Assembly: GCA_036570185.1 (NCBI GenBank)
Contig: DATCPH010000232.1
Span: 2,453-66,452 of the forward strand
Reading direction: 5' to 3'
Source: Candidatus Limnocylindrales bacterium
Lineage (GTDB): Bacteria > Chloroflexota > Limnocylindria > Limnocylindrales > CSP1-4
DNA length: 64,000 nt
A program made the position numbers and the translations under genes. The number at the start of each line of letters is the position of its first letter. The first letter of the stretch is position 1. The notes below the pieces were generated by a model. The model ran no database searches. It was not told the origin of the DNA and saw only the letters and a list, made by a program, of their open reading frames with translations. Below, in pieces: positions 42,268 through 58,578 of this stretch.

Positions 42268-43713
42268 TCAGGCACCCCGCCGGGACAAGGACGTCCTGGG
42301 CTCGTAACGGCGGATGTCCTGCGTCTGGCGCACGAGGGCCCGTAACGTCTCGAGGTCGCCCGACAGGAGCCCGCGGGCCCGCGCCTGGATCAGCACGTTG
42401 CCGAGGGCGGTCGCCTCGACCGGTCCGGCGATCACGGGGACCTCGCATGCATCGGCCGTCAGTTGGCAGAGGAGCGTGTTTCGACTGCCACCACCGACGA
42501 GGTGGACGACGTCGACCGACTGACCCGACAGCCGCGCGGCGTCGCGGACCGTTCGCCCGTAGGCCGCAGCGAGGCTGTCGAGGATGCATCGCACCAACCC
42601 GGCTCGCGTTTCCGGCGGCGGCCGGTCGAGCCTCAGGCACGCCGCCGCGATCCGGGCCGGCATGTCGCCCGTCGGCAGGAATGACGGATCGTCAGGGTCG
42701 ATCACGGGTCCGCCTGCCGGGAGCTCGCCGGCGGCGATGAGCAGGCCCGGAAGCTGTTCCGGACTGCCATCGAGCTCCCAGGTCCTGAGCGACTCCTGGA
42801 GAAGCCACAGGCCCATCACGTTGCGCAGGTAGCGGATCCGGTCGTCGACGCCGCCCTCGTTGGTGAAATTCGCCTCGCGACTCTCATTGGTGAGGATCGC
42901 ATGATCCACCTCGACGCCGACCAGCGACCAGGTGCCGCAGGCGATGTACGCGAACGACGCGTCGCCCGCGGGCACGCCGACGACGGCGGAGGCGGTGTCG
43001 TGAGAACCGACGAGCGTCAGCAACGTCTCCGCGGACGCACCGGTTTCCGCGCGGACCTCGTCCCGCAATGGGCCAATCACGTCGCCGGGGACGCCCAGGG
43101 GCGGGAACAGCGAGGGCGGAATGCCCAGCGCGGAGATCAGCTCCACGTCCCACGTTCGTCGATGGACGTCGAGCAGCGCCGTCGTCGATGCGTTCGTGAC
43201 CTCCGCGACCCGCACGCCCGAGAGCCAATGGCCCAGGAGATCGGGGATGAGCAGCATCGTCCGGGCCAGCGCGAACAGCGACGTCCCCCGTGCCGAAGCA
43301 AGCTGGTAGATCGTGTTGAAGGGCAGGAACTGGAGGCCAGTCCGCGCATAGAGGTCGGCGGTCGGCACGATCCGGTGGACCGCGTCCACGGCGGCAGCCG
43401 TCCGGGTGTCGCGGTAGTGATACGGATCGCCGAGCAGCGTCCCAGACTCATCGAGCAGGCCGTAGTCGACCCCCCACGAGTCGACGCCAATGCTGAGCAG
43501 CTCGTTGGCGGCCCGCGTCGCCTGGCGCAGGCCCGCCAGGACCTCCCGGTAGAGACGCAGGATGTCCCAGTGGAGGCCGTCCGGGAGGCGGACCGGGTCG
43601 TTCGAGAATCGATGGACCTCGGTCAGCTCCAGCTCGTTCGGTGCGACCCGTCCCACCATGACCCTGCCGCTCGATGCGCCGAGGTCGACAGCCGCGACGA
43701 GTCGCCCCGTCAA
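42268..43713 (-). CDS. rhaB: Rhamnulokinase (FGGY carbohydrate kinase)
   Basis: FGGY N- and C-terminal domains (AAVDLGASSGRVMVG, GGGSRNTLLCQLTADA). ATGA-coupled to the upstream aldolase/dehydrogenase gene. Confidence 0.85.
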   Translation of the reverse strand: MTGRLVAAVDLGASSGRVMVGRVAPNELELTEVHRFSNDPVRLPDGLHWDILRLYREVLAGLRQATRAANELLSIGVDSWGVDYGLLDESGTLLGDPYHYRDTRTAAAVDAVHRIVPTADLYARTGLQFLPFNTIYQLASARGTSLFALARTMLLIPDLLGHWLSGVRVAEVTNASTTALLDVHRRTWDVELISALGIPPSLFPPLGVPGDVIGPLRDEVRAETGASAETLLTLVGSHDTASAVVGVPAGDASFAYIACGTWSLVGVEVDHAILTNESREANFTNEGGVDDRIRYLRNVMGLWLLQESLRTWELDGSPEQLPGLLIAAGELPAGGPVIDPDDPSFLPTGDMPARIAAACLRLDRPPPETRAGLVRCILDSLAAAYGRTVRDAARLSGQSVDVVHLVGGGSRNTLLCQLTADACEVPVIAGPVEATALGNVLIQARARGLLSGDLETLRALVRQTQDIRRYEPRTSLSRRGA

Positions 43714-45755
43714 CGGAGAAACGCTGCTGCGACGCCTGCGTCGACCGGGATGTGGAGACCGGTGGTCTGGCTGAGGTCTCCGCCGGCCAGCGCGAAGACG
43801 GCGGCGGCCACGTGCTCGGGCAGGACCTCACGCTTGAGCAGCGTCCGCTGCGCGTAGAACTCGCCCAGCTTGTCCTCCGGGATCCCGTATGTCCGGGCCC
43901 GGTCGGCCCCCCAGCCCTTGGCGAAGATCCCGGAACCGCGCACGACTCCATCGGGATTCACGCCGTTCACCCGGATCCCGTATTGACCGAGCTCAGCCGC
44001 GAGCAGCCGAACCTGGTGGGCCTGGTCCGCCTTGGCTGCGCCGTAGGCGACGTTGTTGGGTCCGGCGAAGAGCGCGTTCTTGCTGACGATGTAGATGAGG
44101 TCGCCACCCATCGCCTGGTCGATCAGGATCCGGGTCGCCTCACGCGAGACGAGGAACGAGCCGCGGGCCATCACGTCGTGCTGGAGGTCCCAGTCGCGCA
44201 AGGTCGTCTCGAGAAGCGGCTTGGAGATCGACAGCCCGGCATTGTTGACGACGAGGTCGACGCCGCCGAAGGCCAGCACGGCCCTCCTGAACGCCTCCCC
44301 GACCTGGGCCTCATCGGTGACGTCGGCGGTCACGCTGACCGCGACATCCATTCCCCCCAGCTCGCGCGCCACGGCCTCGGCACTCGCGGGATCGATGTCC
44401 GCGAGCACGACGCAGGCGCCCTCGGCGGCGAGCCGATGGGCGATCGCCTTGCCGATTCCCGATCCGGCCCCGGTGACGAATGCGACCCTCGCGGCGAGTG
44501 GCTTCGCCGGCGGCATCCTCGACAGCTTTGCTTCCTCGAGCGCCCAGTACTCGACCCGGAACTTCTCAGATTCGGCAATCGGAGCGTACGTTGACAGGGC
44601 CTCCGCGCCGCGCATCACGTTGATCGCGTTGACGTAGAACTCACCGGCGACCCGGGCCGTCTGCTTGTTGGCCCCGAACGAGAACATGCCGACCCCAGGC
44701 ACGAGGACGATCGCCGGATCCGCCCCGCGCATCGGCGGGCTATCGGACGTCGCATGACGCTCGTAGTAGAGGCGATAGTCTGCCCGGTACGCTTCGTGCA
44801 GCTCCCGAAGACGGGTCACGACCGTGGCCAGATCGGCGGTCCCTGGAAGGTCGAGGACCATGGGCCGGACCTTCGTCCGCAGCAAGTGATCCGGACACGA
44901 CGTCCCCAGCGCGGCGAGCCGTGGGTGCTCGGCCCGAGCGACGAAATCGAGGACGACATCGCTGTCCGTGTAGTGGCCGACGATCGACCGGTCTGTCGAC
45001 GCGAGGCCGCGCAGGAGTGGAAACAACGCCGTAGCCCGGGCGTGGCGTTCGGGCTCGGGGAGCGGCTCGAAGCCGTCGATCTGGGGTCCGAACGGGTCGG
45101 GCCGGCCCTCCTCTGCGATGAAACGTTCCGCGGTCCGGATGATCTCGAGTGATCGTGCCTCGCACTCCTCGGACGTGTCGCCCCACGCAGTGATCCCGTG
45201 TCCCCCGAGGATCGCGCCGATCGCCCCGGGGCGATCGCGACGCACCGCGGCCATGTCGAGTCCCAGCTGGAAACCGGGCCGGCGCCAGTCGACCCACGCC
45301 ACGCGTTCGCCGAAGCAGCGGCGCGTCAGGGCCTCGCCGTCAGCCGAGGTCGCCAGGGCGATTCCTGAATCCGGGTGGAGGTGGTCGACGTGATCGGCCT
45401 CGATCAGCCCGTGCATCGCCGTGTCGATCGACGGCGCGGCGCCGCCGCGACCATGAAGGCAGTAGTCGAAGGCCGCGACCATCTCGTCTTCGCGGTCGAC
45501 GCCCGGGTACACGTTCACCAGCGCGCGCAGCCGGTCGAGCCGAAGGACGCCCAGCCCGGCCTCGGTCAACGTGCCAAGATCGCCGCCGGAGCCTTTGACC
45601 CACAGCAATTCGACCGGCCGCCCTGTCGCCGGATCGATCCCGATCCCCTTGGCCGAGGTATTCCCCCCGGCGTAGTTGGTGTTCCGAGGGTCCGACCCGA
45701 GTCGGTTCGAGCGCTCCAAGAGCGCAGCAACTGTCGGATTCGTGTCTGGGGTCAT
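43710..45755 (-). CDS. Bifunctional rhamnulose-1-phosphate aldolase / short-chain dehydrogenase (RhaEW-type)
   Basis: N-terminal class II aldolase/adducin domain (NTNYAGGNTSAKG). C-terminal SDR with TGAGSGIGKAIAHRLAAEGA and the Y-x3-K catalytic pair. Start at ATG 45755 (MTPDTNPTVAALLERSN). The track start 45824 would overlap rhaI. Confidence 0.85.
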   Translation of the reverse strand: MTPDTNPTVAALLERSNRLGSDPRNTNYAGGNTSAKGIGIDPATGRPVELLWVKGSGGDLGTLTEAGLGVLRLDRLRALVNVYPGVDREDEMVAAFDYCLHGRGGAAPSIDTAMHGLIEADHVDHLHPDSGIALATSADGEALTRRCFGERVAWVDWRRPGFQLGLDMAAVRRDRPGAIGAILGGHGITAWGDTSEECEARSLEIIRTAERFIAEEGRPDPFGPQIDGFEPLPEPERHARATALFPLLRGLASTDRSIVGHYTDSDVVLDFVARAEHPRLAALGTSCPDHLLRTKVRPMVLDLPGTADLATVVTRLRELHEAYRADYRLYYERHATSDSPPMRGADPAIVLVPGVGMFSFGANKQTARVAGEFYVNAINVMRGAEALSTYAPIAESEKFRVEYWALEEAKLSRMPPAKPLAARVAFVTGAGSGIGKAIAHRLAAEGACVVLADIDPASAEAVARELGGMDVAVSVTADVTDEAQVGEAFRRAVLAFGGVDLVVNNAGLSISKPLLETTLRDWDLQHDVMARGSFLVSREATRILIDQAMGGDLIYIVSKNALFAGPNNVAYGAAKADQAHQVRLLAAELGQYGIRVNGVNPDGVVRGSGIFAKGWGADRARTYGIPEDKLGEFYAQRTLLKREVLPEHVAAAVFALAGGDLSQTTGLHIPVDAGVAAAFLR

Positions 45756-45811
45756 TGCGTTCTTTCGCCGTTTCGTCGCCAGTTTCCCCGGCCTGGCCGC
45801 CGGTTCGACGC

Positions 45812-46996
45812 TCACGCCCCCCAACCCGCCTGTTGCCCACCGACCCGCTCAGCCACGATCCGTTCACCGTAGCCAGACCTGGCGTATGCAGCGACCGGAT
45901 CGGGATCGAGCCCGAGGCCGGTCCGCACCTCGGCCAGGAGTGGGCGAACATCGGTGTTGTAGGCGTCCATGAAGACCGCGTTGGCGCCGAGGACGTCGCC
46001 GCGTTGCTGGGCCTCCGCGAGAGCGTCGGCGTCGACCAGCAGGGCTTTGGCGGTGGCCTCCTGGACGTTCATGACCGATCGGATCTGGCCCGGGATCTTC
46101 GGCTCGATGTTGTGGCACTGGTCGAGCATGAAGGCCACGCCGGCTTCCTGGCTCAGCCCACGCGCACGCACGACCTCGTACATGATCCTGAACAACTGGA
46201 ACGGATCGGCCGACCCGACCATCAGATCGTCGTCGGCGTAGAACCGGGAGTTGAAGTCGAAGCCGCCCAGGCGAGCCGCCCGGAGCAGGGACGCGACGAT
46301 GAATTCGATGTTGGTGCCCGGTGCGTGGTGACCGGTGTCCACGACGACCTTGGCCTTCGGCCCAGCGGCGACGCAGTGGATGAAGGCCGTGCCCCAGTCC
46401 GGCACGTCCATCGTGTAGAACGACGGCTCGAAGAGCTTGTATTCGAGGAGCATCCGCTGGTCCGAGTTCAGTCGCGCATGCACCGCCGCGAGGGCCTCGG
46501 CAAGCCGGTCCTGTCGCGCTCGAATGTCGTCCTGGCCAGGGTAGTTCGTGCCGTCTGAAAACCACAGCTTCAGGTCCCGCGAGCCGGTCGCATCCATGAT
46601 GTCGATGCACGCCAGCAAGTGGTCGAGCGCCTTGCGCCGCACGCGTGCATCCGGGTTGCAGACGCTGCCGAGCATGTAGTCGTCGTCCTGGAAGACGTTC
46701 GAGTTGATCGTGCCGAGCCTCACGCCGACGTCCGACGCGTGACGTGCCAGGTCGGCGTAGTCGTCGACCCTGTCCCATGGGATGTGGAGCGCGACGGACG
46801 GTGCAACGCCGGTGAACCGGTGGACCTGGGCGGCGTCGGCGACCTTCTCATACGGCGTCCGCGGAACGCCCTTTTGAGCGAACACCTTGAATCGTGTCCC
46901 CGAGTTGCCGAAGGCCCACGACGGCAGTTCGATGTGCTGGACTCTGAGCGCCGCAACGATTGCTGGGTTGCCGATGACGACGGCTGAATTGGTCAC
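45812..46996 (-). CDS. rhaI: L-rhamnose isomerase (actinobacterial xylose-isomerase-like TIM barrel type)
   Basis: 394-aa protein matching the Streptomyces/Mycobacterium-type RhaI pattern (HIPWD, EYKLFEPSFY, DTGHHAPGTNIEFIVA). Confidence 0.9.
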   Translation of the reverse strand: MTNSAVVIGNPAIVAALRVQHIELPSWAFGNSGTRFKVFAQKGVPRTPYEKVADAAQVHRFTGVAPSVALHIPWDRVDDYADLARHASDVGVRLGTINSNVFQDDDYMLGSVCNPDARVRRKALDHLLACIDIMDATGSRDLKLWFSDGTNYPGQDDIRARQDRLAEALAAVHARLNSDQRMLLEYKLFEPSFYTMDVPDWGTAFIHCVAAGPKAKVVVDTGHHAPGTNIEFIVASLLRAARLGGFDFNSRFYADDDLMVGSADPFQLFRIMYEVVRARGLSQEAGVAFMLDQCHNIEPKIPGQIRSVMNVQEATAKALLVDADALAEAQQRGDVLGANAVFMDAYNTDVRPLLAEVRTGLGLDPDPVAAYARSGYGERIVAERVGGQQAGWGA

Positions 46997-47136
46997 GTCT
47001 GCCTCCGCCGCCCGTCGGGGCGGATCTTCCTCGCTCTCCTGACCGGTCCGCGTACAGCCTTTTGCCGATCGTAGTCCTCAGCCCGGGGCCATGACGGGTA
47101 GGCTGACACAGATTTCGATTACTTTCAATTCCTTTC

Positions 47137-47166
47137 TTGACATTGGCTTTACGAAGGGTCTACTGT
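47137..47166 (+). promoter_or_regulatory. Candidate sigma70-like promoter (TTGACA-18 nt-TACTGT) flanked by inverted repeats TTTCGATT / AATCGAAA in the divergent rha control region
   Basis: Read directly in the AT-rich 216-bp gap between rhaI and the DeoR gene. The inverted-repeat arms are at 47113-47120 and 47179-47186. Confidence 0.35.
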
Positions 47167-47212
47167 GCGTCAGTAACCAATCGAAACCAAATTCCCCACA
47201 CCACTTGGGGCC

Positions 47213-48109
47213 TTGACCGTCCGCCGAGACCAAGGGGAGGCCGTGACCGTTCCTGCCAGCGCCTCGCCGAGGGACGTTTTTGCGCGCGAGCGGCAGGAGC
47301 GCATTGCACGCGTCGTCGAGGAGCATGGACGCGCGAGGGTCAGCGATCTCGCGGCACAATTCGGCGTCTCGGCGGTGACGATCCGCAAGGACCTGGTGAT
47401 TCTCGAATCGGAACATCGCTTGGTTCGCGCCCACGGCGGCGCCATCGTCGTCGACAGGAGCCGGCCGGAACTCTCGTTCGAGATCCGAGAGCGGCTCCAG
47501 GCGGACGAAAAGCTCCGAATCGGGGCAGCGGCTGCGGCCCTTGTGCATGACGGCGAGAGCATCGTCATGGATGCGAGCACAACGGCCCTTTCGGTGGCGC
47601 GTCACCTGAAGGCGCGCGGGGGCTGGAGTCAGGTGACCGTGATTACGAACGGCCTGCGGCTGGCTTCGGAGCTCGCCGGCCACCCGGGAATCACGGTCCT
47701 CATGCTCGGTGGCCGGGTGCGCTGGGAGGCGTTGTCGGTCGTCGGTCAGCTGGGCGATGGGCTGTTCAGCCGGATCAACGTCCAGAAGGCGTTCCTTGGC
47801 GCCGCCGGCTTCACCCCCGAGTCCGGCCTGGCCGATGCCACGGACGAAGAGGCGCAGATCAAGCGCTCCATGGTCGCGGCCGCTCGAGAGGTCATCGCGA
47901 TTGTCGACCACACAAAGTGGGAGCGCGCCGCGTTCGCGACGTTCTGCGCGACCGACCAGATCAGCATCGTCCTGACCGATGACGCCGCCCCGCCTGAGAT
48001 GGTCGAGTCACTCATTGACCGCGGTGTGCAGGTCCGGCTCGTCGGGCCTGACCAGGCCATCGAAACGGAGGCTGCCCGAAGCTCCGACGTCACGAGATTG
48101 TCTCGGTGA
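47213..48109 (+). CDS. DeoR/GlpR family transcriptional regulator (likely rhamnose regulator)
   Basis: N-terminal HTH (RIARVVEEHGRARVSDLAAQFGVSAVTIRKDLVILESEHRLVRAHGGA) plus a DeoR C-terminal sugar-phosphate sensor domain. First gene of the transporter operon. Confidence 0.85.
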   Translation: MTVRRDQGEAVTVPASASPRDVFARERQERIARVVEEHGRARVSDLAAQFGVSAVTIRKDLVILESEHRLVRAHGGAIVVDRSRPELSFEIRERLQADEKLRIGAAAAALVHDGESIVMDASTTALSVARHLKARGGWSQVTVITNGLRLASELAGHPGITVLMLGGRVRWEALSVVGQLGDGLFSRINVQKAFLGAAGFTPESGLADATDEEAQIKRSMVAAAREVIAIVDHTKWERAAFATFCATDQISIVLTDDAAPPEMVESLIDRGVQVRLVGPDQAIETEAARSSDVTRLSR

Positions 48110-49668
48110 CCGCGGCCGACGCCGCAGCGACGCCACCCCGTGCCGAGCTCCGCGGGATCTCCAAGCGGTTCGCCGCGACGCAGGCCCTGGATGACGTTTC
48201 GCTGGATCTGATGCCCGGGGAGATCCACGCGTTGGTCGGCGAGAACGGCGCGGGCAAGAGCACCCTGGTCAAGATCCTCGCGGGGGTCCATCAGCCGGAC
48301 AGCGGGACGATCTGGCTCGACGGCCAGTCAACGGAGATTAACGGCCCCGCCCATGCTCGCTCGCTTGGGATCGCCGTCGTCCACCAAGAGCCACGTCTGT
48401 TCCCGGATCTGACCGTCGCCGAGAACGTGTTCATCGGCCACGCGCCCTCCGGTCGCCTCGGCACGCTCGACTGGGGCGGGACTCGCCGGGCGGCGCGGGC
48501 GCTGTTCGATGAACTCGAGGTCCAGTTCGACGTCGATGCGCCGGTCCGTGGCCTGTCGATGGCCGACCAACAGCTGATCGAGATCGCCAAGTCCCTGTCT
48601 GTCGATGCCCGCGTGCTCATCCTGGACGAACCGACCGCCTCGCTCTCCGCCCATGAGGTCGACCGGCTGTTCACGATCGTTCGACGGCTCCGAGACCGCG
48701 GCGTGGCGATCCTGTTCGTGAGCCACCGGCTGGACGAGGTCTTCGAACTGTGCGACCGAGCGACCGTTTTTCGTGACGGTCGCCACGTCGTCACCATGGC
48801 GACGCGCCAGCTCACGACGGCCGACCTCGTGCGGTACATGGTCGGTCGAACGGTCTCGCTGTTTCCGAAGATCGAGACACCTGTCGGCGACGTGCTCCTC
48901 GAGGTCAGCGACCTCTCCAGGGTCGGCGTGTTCCGCGACGTCGGGTTCTCCGTGCGTGCCGGGGAGATCCTTGGGTTCGCGGGCCTGGTCGGCGCCGGCC
49001 GCACCGAGGTCGCCCGGGTCCTCTTCGGGATCGACCAGCGCGATGGCGGCGAGATGCGGCTCGGGGGCACGCCCGTCAACTTTGCGAGCCCATCCGACGC
49101 GATGCATGAAGGGATCGCTTATCTGCCCGAGGACCGCCATCAGGAGGGCCTCGTTTCCGGCTTCTCGATCGCTCAGAACGTGACGCTGCCGATCCTGCCG
49201 CGCCTCTTTCCGCGGTTCCTGGTTCGCTCCTCCACCGAGGGCAAGGTCGCCCACGAATACACCCGACAATTCAATGTTCGGATGACCGGGGTCGACCAGC
49301 TCGTCGGCGCCCTCTCGGGCGGCAATCAACAGAAGGTCGTGCTGGCCAAGTGGTTGGCCTCCAAGCCCAGGATCCTGATCCTGGACGAGCCAACGCGCGG
49401 GATCGACATCGGCGCCAAGGTGGAGGTCCACCGGATCATCTCCGAACTGGCGGCGTCCGGACTGGGGATCATCCTGATCTCGAGCGACCTGCCTGAGGTC
49501 CTCGCGATGTCCGACCGGATCGTCGTGTTCCATGAAGGCCGGATCACCGCCGAGATTCCGCGGGATCGGGCGACCCAGGAGCGGATCATGTTCGCCGCGA
49601 CCGGCAAATTCGGCGGCGACGACCCACCGCCCGCCGATGATGGGGTCAATGTCAGCTCCGGTGCTTGA
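48106..49668 (+). CDS. rhaT: Sugar (rhamnose) ABC transporter ATP-binding protein, duplicated NBD
   Basis: Two NBDs with Walker A GENGAGKST, signature LSMADQQLIEIAKSL, and a second LSGGNQQKVVLAKWL. Confidence 0.9.
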   Translation: MTAADAAATPPRAELRGISKRFAATQALDDVSLDLMPGEIHALVGENGAGKSTLVKILAGVHQPDSGTIWLDGQSTEINGPAHARSLGIAVVHQEPRLFPDLTVAENVFIGHAPSGRLGTLDWGGTRRAARALFDELEVQFDVDAPVRGLSMADQQLIEIAKSLSVDARVLILDEPTASLSAHEVDRLFTIVRRLRDRGVAILFVSHRLDEVFELCDRATVFRDGRHVVTMATRQLTTADLVRYMVGRTVSLFPKIETPVGDVLLEVSDLSRVGVFRDVGFSVRAGEILGFAGLVGAGRTEVARVLFGIDQRDGGEMRLGGTPVNFASPSDAMHEGIAYLPEDRHQEGLVSGFSIAQNVTLPILPRLFPRFLVRSSTEGKVAHEYTRQFNVRMTGVDQLVGALSGGNQQKVVLAKWLASKPRILILDEPTRGIDIGAKVEVHRIISELAASGLGIILISSDLPEVLAMSDRIVVFHEGRITAEIPRDRATQERIMFAATGKFGGDDPPPADDGVNVSSGA

Positions 49669-50689
49669 GCCCGCCGTCAGCGCCACGGTCGGCCGGCCAC
49701 GCACCCGCGGGTCGTGGTTGTCCACGATCGCGCGCCAACGCGAGCTGAGCCTGCTCGCGATCGTGTTCGTGCTGGGCGGTCTGGTATCCGTCGTGGCACC
49801 GCAATTCCTGACGGCATCCAACCTGACGCAAGTTGCCGTCCTGGCCTCGATCATCGCCATCGCGGCAGTTGGCGAGGCATTGGTGGTCCTGACCAGGAAC
49901 GTCGACTTGTCCGTGGAGGCCGTGATGGGCCTCGTCGCCTATTCGGTCGCGCGGCTCCTCGAGCTGCACGCCCTCGACCCGCTCCCGGCGGTCGCCTTCG
50001 GGATCGGCCTGGGACTCCTCCTCGGGATGATCAACGGCGCGATCGTCACGATCTTCAGGGTCCCGGCGATCGTCGCCACGCTCGGCACGTTGAGCATCTT
50101 TCGGGGCGTGGACTACCTCGTGGCCGGCAGCCATCAGGTCCCGCTGGCTGGCCTCCCGCCCGGCTTCACCGACGCTGCCATCGGCTCGATCTTCGGGATC
50201 CCGACGTTCGTCTTCATCGCGATCGTGATCGTGATCGTCGCAAGCGCGGTGCTCCGGTCGACTCCGTTCGGGCGCCAGATCTACGCCGTCGGCAGCAACC
50301 CCGAGGCGGCGGCCATCATCGGTATCCGCTCCAGGCTGGTCGTCTTCACCGCCTTCGCACTGTGCGGCCTGCTCGCGGGCGTTGCCGGGGTGCTGTATGT
50401 CATCGAATTCGGGACGATCAACGGAACGTCGGCGACCGGCCTCGTGCTGTCGGTGGTGGCCGCGGTCGTCGTCGGGGGCGTCAACATCTTCGGTGGCTCG
50501 GGAAGTGTCGCAGGGGCGGCCCTGGGCGCCCTGTTCCTCGGCTTTATTGCGAACGCACTGATCCTGGTCGGCCTGTCGCAGTTCTGGCTCCAGGCCATCT
50601 ACGGTGCCGTGATCCTTGCCGCCGTGTCCGCCGACGCCGTAATCCTGCGACGCGTCCAGCGGGCGGCCATGGAGCAGCGCGCACGATGA
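49649..50689 (+). CDS. rhaP: Sugar ABC transporter permease
   Basis: Ribose/rhamnose-type permease with about 10 TM helices. The start is ambiguous (ATG 49637, 49640 or 49649, or GTG 49661) and overlaps the ATPase stop. Confidence 0.8.
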   Translation: MSAPVLEPAVSATVGRPRTRGSWLSTIARQRELSLLAIVFVLGGLVSVVAPQFLTASNLTQVAVLASIIAIAAVGEALVVLTRNVDLSVEAVMGLVAYSVARLLELHALDPLPAVAFGIGLGLLLGMINGAIVTIFRVPAIVATLGTLSIFRGVDYLVAGSHQVPLAGLPPGFTDAAIGSIFGIPTFVFIAIVIVIVASAVLRSTPFGRQIYAVGSNPEAAAIIGIRSRLVVFTAFALCGLLAGVAGVLYVIEFGTINGTSATGLVLSVVAAVVVGGVNIFGGSGSVAGAALGALFLGFIANALILVGLSQFWLQAIYGAVILAAVSADAVILRRVQRAAMEQRAR

Positions 50690-51741
50690 CCACTGCCGTG
50701 GCACGCCGGGCTCGTGAGCGGCCATGGATGCGCTGGCTCGCGCGCTGGGAGGTCTTCCTTGCCATCGCCCTCGCGGGGCTCCTCCTCCTCGGGGCGAGGC
50801 TGTCGCCTTTCTTCCTGAGTGCGGGCAACTTCTCGAACCTCGTCGCGGCCCTTATGGAAGTCGCGATCATGGCCCTGCCGATGACCCTGATCATCGTCGC
50901 CGGCGAGATCGACCTTTCGGTCGAGTCGATGGCCGGACTGGCCAGCGCGCTCCTTGGGTTCCTGTGGGCCGCCGGCATTCCACTCTGGATCGGGATTCCT
51001 CTCGTCCTCCTCGTCGGCGCCCTTGGCGGGCTCCTGAACGGCCTGCTCGTGGCTCGCGGCCGCTTGCCCTCGCTCGTCGTGACCCTGGGCACGCTGGCCC
51101 TGTTCCGCGGTGGGGCGTTGATCGTCCTCGGACCGCGCGGCGTCAGCGACTTTCCAGCCGCGTTCACGCAACTGGGCTTTGGTCATGTCCCGGGGACACT
51201 CATCCCGTGGCCCTTCGTTATCTTCATCGTCCTGGCCGGCTTGCTCGGCGTCGTGCTCCATCGGACCTGGATCGGGCGCCAGATCTACGCGATCGGCAAG
51301 AACCCGAGCGCTGCGCGCTACTCAGGCGTTCGGGTGACCCGGGTCAAGGTCCTCCTCTTCGTGTTGTCCGGACTGATCGCCTCGCTGGCTGGGATCATCC
51401 TGACCTCACGCCTGTCCAGCGCCCGCGCCGATGCGGGCGAGGGCATGACCCTCACGGTCGTCACCGTGGTTCTGCTCGGTGGCGTCAATATCTTCGGCGG
51501 ATCGGGCACGATCCCCGGTGTCGTTCTGGCGGTCCTCGCGGTGGCCGTGATGCAGAACGCCCTCCGCCTCGCGAGCGTCACCGTCGAGGTCCAGAGCATC
51601 GCCCTTGGCTTGCTGCTGATCCTCTCGGTCGTCATCCCCACTTCTGCTCACCAGGCCAAGTCGGCTATCGATCGAGTTCGCGGAGGCCGGCCTCCGCCGG
51701 CCGGCTCGGTCCCCATGGTGAGCGGAGACATGGATCGGTAG
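50686..51741 (+). CDS. rhaQ: Sugar ABC transporter permease
   Basis: ATGA overlap with rhaP. The real frame is the C-terminal part of the long track ORF 49714..51741, starting MTTAVARRARERPWMRWLARWEVFLAIALAGLL. Confidence 0.85.
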   Translation: MTTAVARRARERPWMRWLARWEVFLAIALAGLLLLGARLSPFFLSAGNFSNLVAALMEVAIMALPMTLIIVAGEIDLSVESMAGLASALLGFLWAAGIPLWIGIPLVLLVGALGGLLNGLLVARGRLPSLVVTLGTLALFRGGALIVLGPRGVSDFPAAFTQLGFGHVPGTLIPWPFVIFIVLAGLLGVVLHRTWIGRQIYAIGKNPSAARYSGVRVTRVKVLLFVLSGLIASLAGIILTSRLSSARADAGEGMTLTVVTVVLLGGVNIFGGSGTIPGVVLAVLAVAVMQNALRLASVTVEVQSIALGLLLILSVVIPTSAHQAKSAIDRVRGGRPPPAGSVPMVSGDMDR

Positions 51742-51754
51742 AGGAGGAACAGGT

Positions 51755-52858
51755 TTGATGTTCAAGTCACAAGGGCGTTTAGCAGGCTTCGCTGGTGTCG
51801 CGGTCGTGCTTCTTGCGGCCTGCACCAGCGCGACCTCGACTTCGGGGCCGGCTTCGGCAGCGCCGGCATCGGCCGCGCCGGCATCGGCCGCGCCCGCGGC
51901 ATCCGCACCCGCGGCGTCCACCGCCGCGGGACCCATCACCGTCGGCTACCTGCCGAAGGACATTGTCAACCAGTACTTCGCGGCCGCGAAGACCGGCATG
52001 GACAAGGCCGCAACCGAACTTGGCGGGACGGTGACCGAGGTTGGCCCCAACCAGGCGAAGGCTGATCTCCAGATCCCGTTCATCCAGGACCTCACGACCA
52101 AGAAAGTCAGCGCGATCGTCATTTCGGCTGACGACAAGGATGCCGTCGCGCCCGCCCTCCAGGCGGCGATGGCGGCTGGCATCAAGGTGGTCGGCTTCGA
52201 CTCGAGCCCCGCGGTCGGCGCTTACAACGTTTTCGTCAACCAGGTCGACTTCAGCGGTGTGGGCGTGAACCTGTCGGATTGGGCGTGTGAGCTCGCACCG
52301 AACTGCACGGGCGACATCGCGATCCTGTCCGCGGCAGCGACCGCGACCAACCAGAACGCGTGGATCGACCTGATGAAGACCACGCTGGCAACGGCCAAGT
52401 ACAAGGGCCTCAAGCTCGTCGCGACCGTTTACGGCAACGACGATGCGACCGAGAGCACCACGCAGGCCCAGGGCCTGCTCACCAAGTACCCCAATCTCAA
52501 GGTCATCGTCGCACCGACCACCGTCGGCATTCTTGCTGCGGCCCAGGTCGTGAAGCAAGCCGGCAAGTCGGCGACGGTCAAGGTCACAGGGCTCGGCTTC
52601 CCGAACGACATGAAGCCGTTCGTGAAGGACGGCACCTCTCCGGTCTTCGGGCTGTGGAGCGTGCCTGACCTTGGCTATCTCTCATTCCAGGTCGCGGCTA
52701 AGCTCGTCAGCGGCGAGATCACCGGCAAGGAGGGCGAGAGCTTCACCGTGGCGAGTCTCAACGGGGGCAAGCCGTACACGATCGGAAAGGACAGCGTCGT
52801 GATCCTCGGGCCGGCGTTCCGGTTCGACAAGACGAACGTCGACAACTTCAACTTCTAA
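51755..52858 (+). CDS. rhaS: Rhamnose ABC transporter substrate-binding lipoprotein
   Basis: Lipoprotein signal AGVAVVLLAAC, then an Ala/Pro/Ser linker. Periplasmic-binding-protein type I fold (ITVGYLPKD...VKVVGFDSS). Confidence 0.85.
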   Translation: MMFKSQGRLAGFAGVAVVLLAACTSATSTSGPASAAPASAAPASAAPAASAPAASTAAGPITVGYLPKDIVNQYFAAAKTGMDKAATELGGTVTEVGPNQAKADLQIPFIQDLTTKKVSAIVISADDKDAVAPALQAAMAAGIKVVGFDSSPAVGAYNVFVNQVDFSGVGVNLSDWACELAPNCTGDIAILSAAATATNQNAWIDLMKTTLATAKYKGLKLVATVYGNDDATESTTQAQGLLTKYPNLKVIVAPTTVGILAAAQVVKQAGKSATVKVTGLGFPNDMKPFVKDGTSPVFGLWSVPDLGYLSFQVAAKLVSGEITGKEGESFTVASLNGGKPYTIGKDSVVILGPAFRFDKTNVDNFNF

Positions 52859-52859
52859 C

Positions 52860-52911
52860 CCGCCTCGACGAGGCGGACGAGAGCCCCGGAAGCGACGCTT
52901 CCGGGGCTCTC
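52860..52911 (+). terminator. Two consecutive GC-rich hairpins between rhaS and rhaM (terminator/attenuator-like, no U-tract)
   Basis: CCGCCTC-gac-GAGGCGG at 52860-52876. Then a 15-bp perfect stem GAGAGCCCCGGAAGC-gac-GCTTCCGGGGCTCTC at 52879-52911. Confidence 0.35.
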
Positions 52912-52929
52912 GGATTCGGAGGTAGCACC

Positions 52930-53244
52930 ATGGAGCGCGTCGGATTCACGATGCGGATCCTGCCCGGACAGGGCGACGAGTACCGTCGACGGCACGCTGC
53001 GGTCTGGCCGGAGATGCTCGATGCCCTCAAGGTCGCCGGATGCCGCGACCATTCGATCTTCATCAGGGACTCGGACCTGTTCGCTTACTTCGAGGTCGGT
53101 GACTTCGATGCGTTTCGCGCATTGATGAACGCAAGCCTGGTGAACGCGCGATGGCAGGCCGAGATGGCCGAATTGATCGACCCGCTCACGGACCCGATGA
53201 CCGGCTTCCACAAGCGTCTCGAGGAGATCTTCCACCTGGACTGA
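52930..53244 (+). CDS. rhaM: L-rhamnose mutarotase
   Basis: 104-aa protein with the RhaM pattern (MRILPGQGDEYRRRHAAVWPEMLDALKVAGCRDHSIFIRD). Confidence 0.85.
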   Translation: MERVGFTMRILPGQGDEYRRRHAAVWPEMLDALKVAGCRDHSIFIRDSDLFAYFEVGDFDAFRALMNASLVNARWQAEMAELIDPLTDPMTGFHKRLEEIFHLD

Positions 53245-55867: not shown

Positions 55868-56120
55868 GCCAGGACAGAGAATGGGATGCGTCCTGAACTT
55901 GGACGGCCACGGTCACGGAGCCCGAGTAACAGGACGTAAGTTCAGCCCAGGTCGCGGCTCCGCTGCCGGATCTCGTCGAGCCGGCTCGTGCCCGATCGAT
56001 CCGCTGCGATGACCTCGTCTCGGAAGCGCCGCAGCGTATCGAGGTCCCAGAAGACGCACGTGAGCTCGGCCACGCCGAGCTCCGCGAGGGACTTCCCACG
56101 TAGGGAGCTCTATGACGACG

Positions 56121-58301
56121 CTACGCGTCCTCGACGGCGCGCGCCGGCTGGCGCGGGCCAACGAGGTGGGCCACCTCGAACGGCGCGGTCGCGAGGGCTA
56201 CTAACGGCTCAAGCGCGGACGGGCCGACCTCGCCGGCCGGGATCGGACGGTCACCGGTGAGCGGCGAGCGGCGGGCGCGCGCGACGAGCCGGGCGAGTTC
56301 GGTGAGCGACGTCACCACGGGGACGCCGCTCCCCGCGAACGCATCCGGATGGCCGGGACGATAGAGACCCACGAAGCGGACCCCCGCGGCCCGGGCGATC
56401 GCAGCGTCACGCGCCGCGTCGCCCACGAACAGGACGTCGCTGGGAGCGACGCCGATCGCGGCCGCCCAGGCCCGGAGCTGCACCACCTTGGGATGGTCCG
56501 GCCGCCAGCCGTCGACCGCAGCTGCGAGCTGGGCCAGCCCGAAGCGCCGGCAAAACTCCTGGACGAGCTCAGCCCGCGTGCTGCTGCAGACGAGGGCAGG
56601 GACGTCGGCATGCCCGAGGCGCTCGATGGCCGCTCCCGCGTCCGCGAACGGTCGGACGCCTCCCATGAGGCCTTCCTTGGCGGCTTCGAAACGGATGGCG
56701 ATCTCGTCGAGGTACGGGCAGCCGTCCGCGATGACGTCGAGCTGGGTCCGGAAGTCGTCGCCCGCGGTCGCGAGGTAGCGGCTCGTGGCTTCGTCGCGCG
56801 GCATGCCGAGCTCGCGCGAGAGCAGCCCGGCCGCGAGCTTCGCGAGCGTCCCCATGGAGTCTGCCACCGTGCCGTCGAAGTCGAACGCCACGGCCCGCAC
56901 CCCCATGTAGTGGGCACCCGGTCCGTCAGCCCACCAGGACGCCCGCAGCCGCACGCTCACGATCCCCACGCACAGGACGGCCACGACGGCGAGCGCGGCC
57001 AGCAGCGCGCTGGCATGCACGGCTGCGCCCAAGGCGCCGAGCGTCACGATCAGCAGTCGCACGTCGCGCCCGCGGCCGCCCGCGACGAGAACGCCGTGGT
57101 ACCTGTGGCCGAGGTCGACGGCGGCCTTGGCCGTCGTATAGCTGACGAGCAGGTGCCCGACGAGCGCCAGGCCGGCGACGGCGATCACGACCGGCACCTG
57201 CACCGACCCAAGATGGCCGGCGAGGTCCCCCGAGGTCCCGAGGTAGATGGCCGCGCCGGTGAAGAGCAGGCCGTCCGCCGCCCGGTCGAGGACCGCGTCG
57301 AAGAACGACCCGAAGCGCGACGAGCGGTGCGCCAGGCGGGCGATCTCGCCATCGCTGCCGTCGAGCACGCTTGCCGCCGTGATGAGGACTGCGGCTACCA
57401 CGGGGGCGTGGGCGGCCAGGGCTGCCCCGGCGGCGAGCGCGACAGCGAACGCGGCAATCGTGACCTGGTTCGGGGTGATCGAGGGGAAGACACCGAGCAG
57501 CACCGGGGTCACGAAGCGCTGCGAAACAGCGCGGTTCAGGCGCGTCGCAACGGCGCCGTCGAGTGCCTTACCGGTGCTTCGGAACAGGTACCGGCTGCCG
57601 CGGCGGTAGTCGGTAGGGGTGTCGATGTCAAACCACCATTCGTCGGCGTTGAGAGGCAGCGCGCGTGCCTTGCCGCGGCCGGCGAGCAGTTGCACGGCAC
57701 CCGCCAACGCGGTGTCGCCGGATGCAGCAACCGCCTCGACCGCGTCGAGCACCGCGGCGCTGCAGACGAAGGCGCCCACGTCGAACGCGTCGTAAGCGGG
57801 CAGCATCTTCCTGATGGCCTCGACCTGGTCGCCGGTGAGTCGAACCTTCATAGCGTCGGCGGGGTCGACACCGGCGGCCCGTCCGAGCGAGCGGTCGACG
57901 GCGACGACGACCTCGCCCGGTAGTACCGACGTCGCCCGGAGCCGGCGCAGCAGTGCCGGCGCGAAGACGTGATCGGCCATCACGAGCGCGAACGGTGCGT
58001 CGCCGACGATGTCCTTCGCGGCGAGGACGGAGAGTCCGTTGCCCTCTCGATAGCGCGCGTTGTGGACCACGGCAACGCGCTGCCCTCGGCGACGGCTCAC
58101 GTCGAGGGCCTCTCGGGCGACACGTTCCGGTTCGTGGCCAGTGACGACGACGATGTCGTCGAAGCCCGCCTCGTGCGCCGCGACGATTGACCGTTCCAGA
58201 AGTGTCATACCCCCGACCGGCACCAGAGGTTTCGCACTCACCTTGGGCTGGAGGCGCGACCCAACTCCGGCGGCAAGCACCACAAGCCGGGAGGTTTGCA
58301 T
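56121..58301 (-). CDS. Tri-domain fusion: sugar/inositol-phosphate cytidylyltransferase (MobA-like NTP transferase) + CDP-alcohol phosphatidyltransferase (DIPPS-like, membrane) + HAD-superfamily phosphatase
   Basis: Single 726-aa ORF. Residues 1-235 form an NTP_transferase domain (VVLAAGVGSRLQP...KPLVPVGG; WFDIDTPTD). Residues ~240-470 are a multi-TM domain with the CDP-OH phosphotransferase signature D-G-x2-A-R-x8-G-x3-D-x3-D (LDGSDGEIARLAHRSSRFGSFFDAVLDRAAD). Residues ~480-690 carry HAD motifs I FDFDGTV, II CSST, III HPK and IV FVGDAARD. Confidence 0.85.
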   Translation of the reverse strand: MQTSRLVVLAAGVGSRLQPKVSAKPLVPVGGMTLLERSIVAAHEAGFDDIVVVTGHEPERVAREALDVSRRRGQRVAVVHNARYREGNGLSVLAAKDIVGDAPFALVMADHVFAPALLRRLRATSVLPGEVVVAVDRSLGRAAGVDPADAMKVRLTGDQVEAIRKMLPAYDAFDVGAFVCSAAVLDAVEAVAASGDTALAGAVQLLAGRGKARALPLNADEWWFDIDTPTDYRRGSRYLFRSTGKALDGAVATRLNRAVSQRFVTPVLLGVFPSITPNQVTIAAFAVALAAGAALAAHAPVVAAVLITAASVLDGSDGEIARLAHRSSRFGSFFDAVLDRAADGLLFTGAAIYLGTSGDLAGHLGSVQVPVVIAVAGLALVGHLLVSYTTAKAAVDLGHRYHGVLVAGGRGRDVRLLIVTLGALGAAVHASALLAALAVVAVLCVGIVSVRLRASWWADGPGAHYMGVRAVAFDFDGTVADSMGTLAKLAAGLLSRELGMPRDEATSRYLATAGDDFRTQLDVIADGCPYLDEIAIRFEAAKEGLMGGVRPFADAGAAIERLGHADVPALVCSSTRAELVQEFCRRFGLAQLAAAVDGWRPDHPKVVQLRAWAAAIGVAPSDVLFVGDAARDAAIARAAGVRFVGLYRPGHPDAFAGSGVPVVTSLTELARLVARARRSPLTGDRPIPAGEVGPSALEPLVALATAPFEVAHLVGPRQPARAVEDA

Positions 58302-58505
58302 TTTTTCTCGATCTCCATCTTGCTGTAGCCCGAGTGAGCCGCCCCTGGGTTGCTGCGGCCGACGCTGATCCAGTAGTCGCGGCCGACCTGCTGCACGCGA
58401 TCTACGACCGCATCGTTGTCGCGGGTCGGTCGACCGTCGCGGCTCGCCTGACGCCGGCGGCCTATTCGAACGGCCTGGCTCTCGCTTTGCCGCAGGTTGT
58501 TAAAG

Positions 58506-58578
58506 CGCGCCCGGAGGGACTCGAACCCCCGACCCTCTGGTCCGAAGCCAGATGCTCTATCCGCTGAGCTACGGGCGC
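58506..58578 (-). tRNA. tRNA-Arg (anticodon UCG), CCA not encoded
   Basis: Minus-strand cloverleaf: GCGCCCG-TA-GCTC-AGCGGATA-GAGC-A-TCTGG-CTTCGGA-CCAGA-GGGTC-GGGGG-TTCGAGT-CCCTC-CGGGCGC-G. Anticodon TCG and A20 fit Arg identity. Ends are accurate to about +/-2 nt. Confidence 0.8.

Follow-up and report, generated by a model that had tools for sequence, protein, structure and literature searches.

Di-myo-inositol phosphate (DIP) is regarded as a hallmark solute of (hyper)thermophiles, and as heat- and stress-protective. The characterised IPCT/DIPPS proteins of its biosynthesis come from (hyper)thermophilic hosts, end after their sixth transmembrane helix (TM6), and need a separate phosphatase, which to our knowledge has never been pinned down genetically. 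Published reconstructions assign this DIPP phosphatase step to IMPase, and according to published papers DIP has so far been chemically demonstrated only in (hyper)thermophiles. Among other CDP-alcohol phosphotransferases (CAPTs), the PIP and archaetidylinositol-P synthases (PIPS and AIPS) share with the CAPT domain described below a six-TM fold, an inositol-1-phosphate acceptor, an RxxR motif and a product needing a phosphatase, but they use CDP-DAG or CDP-archaeol donors via a hydrophobic groove and have no functional cytidylyltransferase domain. Furthermore, Heaver et al. (2022) described in Bacteroidetes a MIPS-linked cluster of an NTP transferase, a CDP-alcohol phosphatidyltransferase and a HAD hydrolase, and proposed it to be an inositol-lipid pathway. 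This Bacteroides vulgatus/Prevotella triad (BVU_RS13095, NTP transferase; BVU_RS13105, CDP-alcohol phosphatidyltransferase; BVU_RS13115, HAD hydrolase; beside MIPS) occurs in gut and oral hosts as separate genes or as a two-domain fusion, and has been interpreted as a lipid route that involves no phosphorylated intermediate; in P. veroralis, the CAPT and HAD parts are fused in the same order as in the protein studied here (Heaver et al. 2022). Lastly, a HAD-IA phosphatase fused in cis within an osmolyte route is found in MtlD of Acinetobacter baumannii (PDB 7OCS), where its partner is mannitol-1-phosphate dehydrogenase, which forms the phosphorylated precursor of the osmolyte.

Here we describe a gene that combines all three domain types in one reading frame, located in a 64-kb stretch of DNA from a Candidatus Limnocylindrales bacterium (hereafter the window). 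The IPCT/DIPPS fusion and the separate triad cluster are already known. Our searches of the literature yielded nothing relevant on a characterised three-domain enzyme or on DIP genes in soil MAGs, in agreement with a preliminary description of this DNA, which knew of no characterised three-domain version. The features of the locus are as follows.

58302..58356, minus strand: conserved leader of ~55 bp with an AAGGAG-type ribosome-binding site (upstream-region alignment; blastn boundary at 58356)
56121..58301, minus strand: three-domain IPCT-DIPPS-HAD fusion gene, stop codon included (ORF, codon-position GC, homolog alignment, AlphaFold model)
57567..58301, minus strand: IPCT-like cytidylyltransferase domain, aa 1-245 (Pfam NTP_transf_3, NCBIfam, Foldseek)
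56922..57566, minus strand: DIPPS-like six-TM CAPT domain with a juxtamembrane helix (250-271), aa 246-460 (Pfam CDP-OH_P_transf, model, NCBIfam)
57285..57362, minus strand: CAPT signature D314xxD317G318xxA321R322x8G331xxxD335xxxD339 (regular expression; eight residues invariant in 27 homologs)
56250..56921, minus strand: HAD-IA phosphatase with a four-helix C1 cap (aa 483-548), aa 461-684 (Pfam HAD_2 and Hydrolase, motifs, domain model)
56868..56882, minus strand: HAD motif I, D474-F-D476-G-T478, the nucleophile and general acid/base Asp pair (invariant)
56406..56423, minus strand: HAD motif IV, G627-D628-A-A-R-D632 (G627, D628 and D632 invariant)
56124..56249, minus strand: C-terminal tail, aa 685-726, disordered and little conserved (pLDDT <50 for 685-726; varies among homologs)
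56106..56201, plus strand: remnant of a His_Phos_1 gene, its last 32 codons, convergent with the fusion (tblastn match with the C-terminal end of the L021 protein at 78% identity, E 1.4e-12)

The fusion gene is genuine and not an assembly artefact. Its ORF runs from an ATG start through 726 codons without interruption, exactly at 56121..58301 on the minus strand, and its codon-position GC of 0.78/0.52/0.86 is that of genuine genes in this DNA (window GC 68%). In a Pfam scan, aa 7-137 match NTP_transf_3 (3.5e-16), aa 276-410 match CDP-OH_P_transf (6.8e-11) and aa 472-645 match HAD_2 (8.6e-13), each hit passing the gathering threshold, and the AlphaFold model of the whole protein reaches a mean pLDDT of 86.3 and a pTM of 0.72. 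More than 100 three-domain homologs align end to end with the window protein, and among the best 120 homologs nearly all have the three domains in collinear arrangement and a length of 700-780 aa, with a few truncated proteins. The single-polypeptide architecture in the order proposed earlier is thereby borne out, and a frameshift joining separate genes does not explain it. The same order is common to hundreds of homologs, with identities down to about 26-40%, remoter three-domain proteins being found at 38-45%. In an alignment of 27 such proteins (identity down to 38%), the catalytic residues of the cytidylyltransferase, CAPT and HAD domains are all invariant, from which it follows that selection acts on all three activities.

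The first 450 residues are genuinely homologous to characterised IPCT/DIPPS proteins, and the preliminary description had already called the CDP-OH phosphotransferase DIPPS-type. Residues 5-448 are collinear with the IPCT/DIPPS of A. fulgidus, an enzyme characterised by both biochemistry and structure (AF0263, PDB 4MND; E 1.1e-37 by sequence, and by Foldseek E 2.4e-24 with a target-normalised TM-score of 0.78), which is the best match by sequence, family model and fold alike, and which shares the domain order, the signatures, the six-TM core and the cytoplasmic N-terminal domain. The alignment to the NCBIfam IPCT/DIPPS model covers its profile positions 3-411 out of 419. For the N-terminal domain alone this is again the top NCBIfam family, with 110 bits against 69 for the runner-up, and Foldseek retrieves the IPCTs of T. 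maritima (4JD0) and A. fulgidus (2XME) with target-normalised TM-scores of 0.83-0.89. The nucleotidyltransferase signature G12-x-G14-x-R16...K24 and D110 are invariant in the 27-sequence alignment. Identity to characterised IPCT/DIPPS proteins is nevertheless only ~27%, and the protein scores 205.5 bits with the curated IPCT/DIPPS equivalog NF041135, below its cut-off of 580; since that model was built for Thermococcales, this indicates that the protein is no close ortholog, rather than that it has another function.

In the CAPT domain, the signature that was reported earlier is present in its exact form (D317 to D339), within the full CAPT signature that runs from D314 to D339 and sits on TM2 and TM3 of a six-TM core. 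The modelled TM helices (277-296, 300-323, 329-356, 358-397, 412-425 and 431-459) are not followed by any extra C-terminal ones. Clarke et al. (2015) linked this six-TM architecture to soluble acceptors, and lipid-acceptor CAPTs to typically 3-4 additional C-terminal TM helices. When this domain is scored by itself against NCBIfam, DIPPS comes first with 85 bits, followed by archaetidylinositol-P synthase (75), PIP synthase (61) and BT1523 (50), runner-up families that all use inositol-1-phosphate as an acceptor, while the PgsA and PssA models give at most 26 bits. The PIPS and AIPS scores lie below their cut-offs of 170-180 (170 for the PIPS, or PgsA1, equivalog). Invariance extends to the RxxR acceptor motif R412/R415, which corresponds to R152/R155 of MtPIPS, and to R451, where TM6 ends. 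Moreover, the juxtamembrane residues N256-R257-x-x-S260 are those of AfDIPPS and AF2299, which take soluble donors, where the PIP synthase of M. tuberculosis has S-R-x-x-F. The nearest PDB sequences, however, are AF2299 (61.4 bits), which binds CDP-glycerol, and AfDIPPS (59.1 bits); these two score about equally, and the sequence does not fix the identities of donor and acceptor.

The HAD domain lies C-terminal to the membrane domain, as described earlier, and both alignment and model join it to TM6 via a linker of ~15 residues. All four HAD motifs that had been claimed are there, including the catalytic Asp pair D474/D476; in addition to motifs I and IV, motif II (S573-S574-T575) and motif III (K605) are present, with S573-T575 and K605 invariant in the 27 sequences. 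The domain is modelled with a pLDDT of 93.2, and in the full model its cap consists of helices 483-498, 502-511, 517-524 and 531-548. Such a C1 cap, a helical bundle between HAD motifs I and II, is typical of enzymes with small-molecule substrates. In line with this, profile and fold comparisons both place C1-capped HAD-IA phosphatases that act on small soluble phosphoesters closest to the domain. The nearest structures, all C1-capped HAD-IA proteins, are DR_1622, AlnB, phosphoglycolate phosphatases, CbbY, beta-PGM and the phosphatase domain of MtlD; the latter is a detectable relative in both structure and sequence, although MtlD differs in partner enzyme, solute and domain order, and is soluble rather than membrane-anchored. 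Lipin-type or other lipid phosphatases were absent from the sequence and fold matches of this domain. The top curated family is phosphoglycolate phosphatase, but its 45 bits fall short of the cut-off, 180, so that no named equivalog includes the domain. Judged from sequence and fold, the HAD domain is a phosphatase of the small-molecule type. The tail behind it overlaps, in antisense, the remnant of the convergent His_Phos_1 gene.

How widespread is this architecture, and what ties it to inositol? A rough NJ tree groups the HAD-bearing sequences in what is essentially a single clade, with AfDIPPS outside. The clade's members carry labels of many bacterial phyla and of Methanosarcinales archaea, at 50-78% identity, and one branch alone comprises thousands of database sequences. 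In contrast to the (hyper)thermophilic hosts of characterised IPCT/DIPPS, the MAGs that carry three-domain genes come from soils and sediments. The link to inositol-1-phosphate that had been suggested earlier stands in part. MIPS was not found in the 64-kb window, either by Pfam scans of ~50 coding-type ORFs or by tblastn with the MIPS of L028, and it is absent within 10 kb of every close homolog (at least 57% identical). In other lineages, however, it lies directly upstream of the three-domain gene on the same strand with a gap of 20-27 bp (L056, L057, L058 and L077), or adjoins it divergently (L053, L059, L061 and L081), and about half of the two-domain relatives have MIPS directly upstream. 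As such, the three-domain family is tied to inositol-1-phosphate through MIPS adjacency in other lineages.

We consider it probable that the fusion constitutes a membrane-anchored, single-polypeptide pathway from CTP and inositol-1-phosphate via CDP-inositol and DIPP to DIP. By homology, the cytoplasmic N-terminal domain would convert CTP and L-myo-inositol-1-phosphate into CDP-inositol, from which the CAPT, with its active site presumably at the cytoplasmic face of the membrane, would move phospho-inositol to a second inositol-1-phosphate, yielding DIPP and CMP. Going by the architecture, the HAD domain, on its short linker at the cytoplasmic side, would then strip the terminal phosphate from DIPP to give DIP, while a MIPS gene at another place in the host genome would have to supply the inositol-1-phosphate. 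Of the one-protein DIP pathway put forward in the preliminary description, the three activities in their order hold, and the HAD domain is of the small-molecule type; its role as DIPP phosphatase is what we infer from the fusion.

This solute reading has a published rival, because Heaver et al. (2022) read the same triad as an inositol-lipid pathway. The Bacteroidetes triad and the window protein consist of the same three families, as far as they can be likened by family description, and MIPS adjoins the triad as it does other members of the window protein's clade; the species with that cluster make phosphoinositol dihydroceramide without a canonical PIPS pathway. The fusion might then be an inositol phospholipid or sphingolipid head-group synthase, which could work in two ways. 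In a Kennedy-like route, CDP-inositol would be made and the CAPT would pass phospho-inositol to diacylglycerol or ceramide, with the HAD domain working on a lipid phosphate, for instance from phosphatidate to DAG, or in PI remodelling. Such a route needs no phosphatase and leaves an invariant, fused HAD domain unexplained, and the CAPT lacks extra TM helices, the HAD domain following directly after TM6. Alternatively, the CAPT would be a PIP synthase, using CDP-DAG along with inositol-1-phosphate, and the HAD domain a PIP phosphatase. The CAPT does resemble PIP and AIP synthases (61-75 bits), its six TM helices and conserved RxxR would fit equally, and Clarke et al. (2015) called the bacterial PIP phosphatase not yet identified; yet this would leave the invariant IPCT-like cytidylyltransferase without a role, and the juxtamembrane residues follow the soluble-donor enzymes instead of PIPS. 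Both versions must also account for a HAD domain whose kin act on small soluble phosphoesters, and for a clade whose bacterial and archaeal labels, at 50-78% identity, fit soluble substrates more easily than domain-specific membrane lipids. Furthermore, the Bacteroidetes pathway is itself putative, a search of the literature having returned no confirming follow-up. We therefore regard a lipid product as unlikely, though it is the alternative to be taken most seriously.

The chemistry could also be the same and the product another phosphodiester solute, such as glycero-phospho-inositol, a di-polyol phosphate of another isomer, or a glycosylated derivative, if the cytidylyltransferase or the acceptor site used a polyol phosphate other than myo-inositol-1-phosphate. 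This would suit the slightly better CAPT score to CDP-glycerol-binding AF2299 and the low identity to characterised IPCT/DIPPS. In one subclade, moreover, a GFO/IDH/MocA oxidoreductase follows the fusion (L026, with a 4-bp overlap at the stop codon, L073, L078 and L080), a hint of other isomers of inositol in some lineages. This enzyme is weakly similar to inositol dehydrogenase, but its 95 bits do not come near the IolG cut-off, 355, and the window protein's own subclade lacks it. An apparent iol catabolism cluster at L026 was rejected on the same grounds, as its oxidoreductases reach 95-120 bits against that cut-off and its TPP enzyme resembles acetolactate synthase, not IolD. Given that the nucleotidyltransferase is nearest to IPCTs in sequence and fold, and that the recurrent upstream partner is MIPS and not a glycerol-phosphate enzyme, we deem a different solute rather improbable.

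A second phosphatase gene is found next to many of the fusions. An intact His_Phos_1 partner (Pfam His_Phos_1 1.4e-44) adjoins the fusion in L002, L003, L006, L014, L021, L022, L023, L031 and L032, as well as in L039-41, L053, L061 and L076, and this neighbour is kept down to fusion genes ~40% identical to the query. His_Phos_1 is present in 13 of the 41 three-domain loci, plus 10 remnants, and an IMPase-family gene stands beside the fusion in five of the 41, translationally coupled in low-GC operons. Since a second phosphatase thus travels with the fusion in many lineages, it may be that the HAD domain does not dephosphorylate DIPP, or does not do so alone. It could be an inositol-1-phosphate phosphatase that releases free inositol, to serve as acceptor or elsewhere, a phosphatase with a regulatory or proof-reading role, or a phosphomutase (HAD-IA also includes mutases, e.g. 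beta-PGM), with DIPP being dephosphorylated by His_Phos_1, the IMPase-family neighbour, or the housekeeping IMPase that published reconstructions name. We consider this very improbable, as in at least 10 loci, the window among them, an intact and conserved fusion gene stands next to a His_Phos_1 gene truncated to 27-60 codons, as 23 of the 41 three-domain loci lack any other neighbouring phosphatase and none of the 21 two-domain operons has an adjacent one of the His_Phos_1 or IMPase kind, as the short tether puts the HAD domain beside the transferase active site, and as consecutive steps are the most economical explanation for an obligate cis-fusion.

Between genomes, among them MAGs given to Chloroflexota and to Actinomycetota, DNA identity of 87-95% ends at the edges of the fusion gene; by blastn, the end of the leader at 58356 is where the shared DNA stops upstream, and because of this sharp boundary the gene looks horizontally mobile. 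Together with its ancestral, convergent His_Phos_1 partner, it looks like a compact unit that can pass horizontally between high-GC soil bacteria. At the edges of the shared DNA, we looked for terminal inverted or direct repeats, or an attC-like site, and found only short repeats at chance level. A tRNA-Arg upstream in the window was considered as an integration site and rejected, as other loci have no consistent tRNA neighbour. The window's flanking genes (ECF sigma, putative anti-sigma, DUF6855, HD, WYL and SAM hydroxide adenosyltransferase) are not near any homolog, so that the local context is uninformative. The osmoprotectant importer noted earlier at 1-2509 is real and of the ProV/ProW type, but it lies 54 kb from the fusion, and with flanking genes that do not recur, the osmo-adaptation theme drawn from it is no evidence.

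What would this mean for the family and its hosts? More tentatively, and with a chance that we put somewhat below even, a mobile single gene may give mesophilic soil bacteria of several phyla the full DIP route, with the HAD domain as its dedicated DIPP phosphatase, and by extension the Bacteroidetes triad may carry out the same solute-type chemistry or use its product. Should the predicted DIP function be correct, a dedicated phosphatase could be named for the last step of DIP synthesis, which published reconstructions fill with an assumed housekeeping IMPase, and a ‘thermophile’ solute pathway would be widespread in temperate soils and cold sediments, adding to reports from deep-sea Thaumarchaeota. 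A one-gene cassette (plus MIPS) would then be available to engineer a potent protein-stabilising solute, and there would be a clean test for the function of the inositol-lipid-linked NTP-transferase/CAPT/HAD triad in gut Bacteroidetes. Lastly, the gene-limited identity of 87-95% between Chloroflexota and Actinomycetota would illustrate how a gene for stress protection travels as a minimal unit.

The gene is a single open reading frame at exactly 56121-58301, as the preliminary description had claimed; it is on the minus strand, with an ATG start and a product of 726 aa. Its codon-position GC (0.78/0.52/0.86) is typical for genuine genes of this 68% GC window. The domain scan which that description had proposed returned the three Pfam domains in the expected order, each above its gathering threshold, and an AlphaFold model built on a 27-sequence alignment (mean pLDDT 86.3, pTM 0.72) supplies the architecture around them:

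aa 7-137, NTP_transf_3 (Pfam)
aa 276-410, CDP-OH_P_transf (Pfam)
aa 468-645, HAD_2/Hydrolase (Pfam)
aa 1-245, alpha/beta nucleotidyltransferase domain (model)
aa 250-271, juxtamembrane helix (model)
aa 277-296, 300-323, 329-356, 358-397, 412-425 and 431-459, six TM helices (model)
between TM6 and the HAD core, linker of ~15 residues with a conserved S-W-W inside (model)
after the linker, Rossmannoid HAD core; its C1 cap, aa 483-548, has four helices (model)
aa 685-726, disordered tail (model)

The CDP-alcohol phosphotransferase (CAPT) signature is complete (D314-x2-D317-G-x2-A-R-x8-G331-x3-D335-x3-D339), and all four HAD motifs that had been read from the sequence are there (D474-F-D476-G-T478; S573-S574-T575; K605; G627-D628-x3-D632). 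Every catalytic residue of the three domains is invariant in the 27-sequence alignment, which spans 38-92% identity. A search for homologs with the same domain order, likewise proposed beforehand, found the best 120 database matches (60-92% identity) to be nearly all collinear three-domain proteins, with a few truncated. Cluster representatives at 50% identity yielded further three-domain proteins (P0123-P0131, 38-45% identity), five of them with all three domains confirmed by precomputed Pfam matches, and a metagenome scan added dozens more, down to 26-33% identity. Since three-domain homologs occur among the best 120, at 38-45% and in metagenomes, an assembly artefact is ruled out as the source of the fusion.

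What, then, does each domain resemble? Residues 5-448 are collinear with the A. fulgidus structure 4MND (E 1.1e-37), a fusion that joins an inositol-1-phosphate cytidylyltransferase (IPCT) to the CAPT domain DIPPS. The same structure is the top Foldseek match (E 2.4e-24), followed, at TM-scores of 0.83-0.89, by two IPCTs, 4JD0 from T. maritima and 2XME from A. fulgidus. The NCBIfam IPCT/DIPPS model, which is Thermococcales-specific, aligns over profile positions 3-411 of 419 and scores 205 bits, below its 580-bit cut-off. Scanned alone, the N-terminal domain matches IPCT/DIPPS best (110 bits; next family 69). The transferase domain alone prefers DIPPS (85 bits) over archaetidylinositol-phosphate synthase (75), PIP synthase (61) and BT1523 PIPS (50), all four of which use inositol-1-phosphate as acceptor, and scores at most 26 bits against PgsA and PssA. 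Modelled alone, the HAD domain reaches pLDDT 93. Profile and fold both place it nearest to HAD-IA phosphatases that have a C1 cap and act on small soluble phosphoesters (AlnB, DR_1622, phosphoglycolate phosphatases, CbbY, beta-PGM, TM_1254 and the mannitol-1-phosphate phosphatase domain of MtlD). No curated equivalog matched; phosphoglycolate phosphatase came closest, with 45 bits where the cut-off is 180.

Six-TM CDP-alcohol phosphotransferases have soluble acceptors, lipid-acceptor enzymes having 3-4 additional C-terminal helices; two arginines hold the phosphate of an inositol-phosphate acceptor, and the donor pocket is small and hydrophilic in DIPPS and AF2299, and a hydrophobic groove in PIP synthase (Clarke et al. 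2015, PMC4634129). The model of our protein has exactly six TM helices. Its RxxR (R412-D-V-R415), aligned to R152/R155 of MtPIPS, is invariant, as is R451 at the end of TM6. The juxtamembrane helix carries N256-R-x-x-S260, like AfDIPPS and AF2299 and unlike M. tuberculosis PIP synthase, which has S-R-x-x-F at this position. At the level of sequence alignment, these features speak for a donor that is soluble and an acceptor of the inositol-phosphate type. As the number of TM helices is even, the HAD domain is predicted to lie on the same side of the membrane as the N-terminal domain; in solved homologs this side is cytoplasmic and holds the transferase active site.

Taken together, the protein probably provides a single-polypeptide route, in three steps, from inositol-1-P and CTP to di-myo-inositol phosphate (DIP). 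By homology, the N-terminal domain would convert CTP and L-myo-inositol-1-P to CDP-inositol; the six-TM domain, judging from homology and its acceptor-site residues, would join CDP-inositol and inositol-1-P into phosphorylated DIP (DIPP), releasing CMP; and the HAD domain would cleave DIPP to DIP and Pi. We infer this last step from four features: the HAD domain is an obligate C-terminal fusion, its tether is short, it belongs to a small-molecule type, and two-domain (IPCT/DIPPS) operons hold no phosphatase. Synthase-phosphatase fusions recur in compatible-solute pathways: the phosphatase domain of MtlD, a bifunctional osmolyte enzyme, is detectably related to our HAD domain, and further examples are MPGS/MPGP of Dehalococcoides and TPS/TPP.

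The strongest rival, in our judgement an unlikely one, is a Kennedy-like synthesis of inositol lipids. In Bacteroides vulgatus and Prevotella, inositol-1-phosphate synthase (MIPS) has as neighbours an NTP transferase, a CDP-alcohol phosphatidyltransferase and a HAD hydrolase, the last two of this triad being fused in P. veroralis; the species carrying it make phosphoinositol dihydroceramide, and a Kennedy-like lipid pathway is the authors' proposal, as yet unconfirmed (Heaver et al. 2022, PMC9246714). Compared with this published cluster, our protein amounts to a full fusion of the triad. Four points speak against a lipid acceptor here: the architecture has six TM helices, the HAD domain is of a small-molecule type, the proposed lipid route needs no phosphatase, and the three-domain clade spans bacteria and archaea.

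A comparison of 108 related loci bears on the substrate. MIPS lies directly upstream of three-domain genes, either on the same strand at a gap of 20-27 bp (L056, L057, L058, L077) or divergently (L053, L059, L061, L081), and directly upstream of 12 of the 24 two-domain relatives, including that of locus L028, whose protein is 45% identical to ours. This placement ties the three-domain clade to inositol-1-phosphate. Physical linkage to MIPS has been lost in the query's own subclade (at least 57% identity). That the product is a different polyol phosphodiester we consider quite improbable: one three-domain subclade has, immediately after the fusion gene, a gene for a GFO/IDH/MocA oxidoreductase (L026 12118-13101, overlapping the fusion by 4 bp; L073 1670-2650; L078 3677-4660; L080 9170-10150), but it scores far under the IolG cut-off. 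Its weak likeness to IolG may point to another inositol isomer in that lineage. Among the other neighbours, a Na+/H+ exchanger with a TrkA_N domain (L024 3810-5660), directly upstream and on the same strand as a 42%-identical three-domain gene, is a weak hint of an ion or osmotic-stress context. A 206-aa ORF follows two-domain homologs 44-45% identical to the query (L011 11335-11955; L028 2542-3162); that of L011 overlaps the stop codon and matches DUF4202 and HD, and that of L028 has no Pfam match and no similarity to the L011 ORF detectable by tblastn.

Many three-domain genes have a second phosphatase beside them. Of the 41 loci whose flanks are long enough, 13 have an intact, convergent His_Phos_1 gene that overlaps the fusion's 3' end, and this gene is still found beside fusion genes with only about 40% identity to the query; in at least 10 loci, this window included, just a remnant of 27-60 codons is left. 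In low-GC lineages an IMPase-family gene (PF00459) overlaps the fusion's stop codon by 4 bp; this arrangement was seen in sediment lineages of GC 0.35-0.43 (L057, L058 at 8684-12712, L065, L068, L074, L082). At L057 and L058 MIPS precedes as well, giving an operon of MIPS, fusion and IMPase family, and with the fused HAD domain thus two phosphatases per operon. Given the remnants, and the 23 of 41 three-domain loci with neither neighbour, the neighbouring phosphatase is dispensable; the fused HAD domain, by contrast, is invariant. Downstream of two-domain genes, none of 21 loci has a His_Phos_1 or IMPase-type phosphatase. That the HAD domain has another role, with the neighbour acting on DIPP, strikes us as very improbable indeed.

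The window itself holds the following features:

1-2509, minus strand, osmoprotectant importer
9238-9313, plus strand, tRNA-Ile, anticodon TAT (ARAGORN)
42268-53244, complete-looking L-rhamnose utilisation cluster: FGGY kinase, aldolase/short-chain dehydrogenase fusion, isomerase-like TIM barrel, DeoR regulator, sugar ABC transporter (ATPase, permease, binding protein), rhaM mutarotase
56106-56201, plus strand, His_Phos_1 remnant, last 32 codons then stop (78% identity, E 1.4e-12)
58187-58567, plus strand, antisense ORF
58505-58578, minus strand, tRNA-Arg(TCG)

The fusion gene has tRNA-Arg and a DUF6855 gene as neighbours at one end; at its other end are an ECF sigma factor and a putative anti-sigma factor. 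No MIPS occurs anywhere in the 64 kb, and the gene context within the window is uninformative. The importer, which the preliminary description had read as OpuC-type and as part of an osmoadaptation theme, is real and of the ProV/ProW betaine/choline type, but it lies 54 kb off and is unlinked to the fusion's homologs elsewhere. Its ProV-type ATPase scores 315.6 bits against the 326.6-bit cut-off of the betaine/proline/choline subfamily, next to two ProW/ChoW-like permease genes, and the OpuC label is plausible. The fusion gene lies just downstream of tRNA-Arg, and the antisense ORF in the intervening 200 bp, whose translation (…DLLHAIYDRIVVAGRSTVAARLTPAAY…) resembled a recombinase fragment by eye, is a possible integration scar. 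tRNA-Ile(TAT) is uncommon in bacteria, where AUA is mostly decoded by a lysidine-modified CAT tRNA.

All 61 HAD-bearing sequences fall in one 68-tip clade of a rough, quick neighbour-joining tree of the shared IPCT and CAPT region, midpoint-rooted and without support values; the remaining tips are genes cut off by a contig end plus a few genuine two-domain proteins, and AfDIPPS and the MIPS-linked two-domain genes fall outside. In an all-against-all blastn of query-subclade loci with 10-kb flanks, window positions 56107-58356 share 87-95% nucleotide identity with L001-L009, L021 and L029-L035, and this identity covers nothing beyond the gene and, in some cases, His_Phos_1. Identity starts ~55 bp upstream of the ATG and stops ~14 bp past the stop codon, or past His_Phos_1 where present; no pair shows flank homology. 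In the window, where the His_Phos_1 remnant overlaps the gene's 3' tail, the DNA common to other genomes stops exactly at the breakpoint. These copies come from MAGs labelled Chloroflexia, Limnocylindria, Acidimicrobiia and Actinomycetota, and the gene region has 72% GC against ~68% for the window. Transposase or integrase genes lie near L021, L022, L025 and L026; no terminal repeats were found at the edges of the common DNA. Identity limited to the gene, with no flank homology between pairs, suggests that the gene was recently transferred horizontally as a minimal unit, or else that MAG contigs were mis-binned. One otherwise 94% identical copy (L009 11400-12182, MAG MFD08497.bin.2.46) is split among different reading frames after aa 467, probably a long-read assembly error and not a pseudogene.

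IPCT/DIPPS, the DIP pathway and the triad as a gene cluster are already known, and DIP-synthase homologs have been described in non-thermophiles: in deep-sea Thaumarchaeota they form, together with an additional IMPase, a small island that was acquired and is transcribed at ~2 °C (PMC7265257, PMC8397731). In the literature searched we found no paper describing or assaying the three-domain protein. It is neither categorically new nor rare, being abundant in public data under generic names: the low-GC branch alone counts 2,504 database proteins at E<=1e-20, named at source only 'HAD hydrolase-like protein', 'NTP transferase domain-containing protein' or 'Bifunctional IPC transferase...', with taxon labels from Ca. 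Anammoxibacter, KSB1, Deltaproteobacteria and Dehalococcoidia through to Methanosarcinales archaea. A self-contained DIP-type synthase moving as a single gene in temperate soil bacteria would be moderately surprising to a specialist, and one construct makes two questions testable, namely the identity of the DIPP phosphatase and the product of the Bacteroidetes triad.
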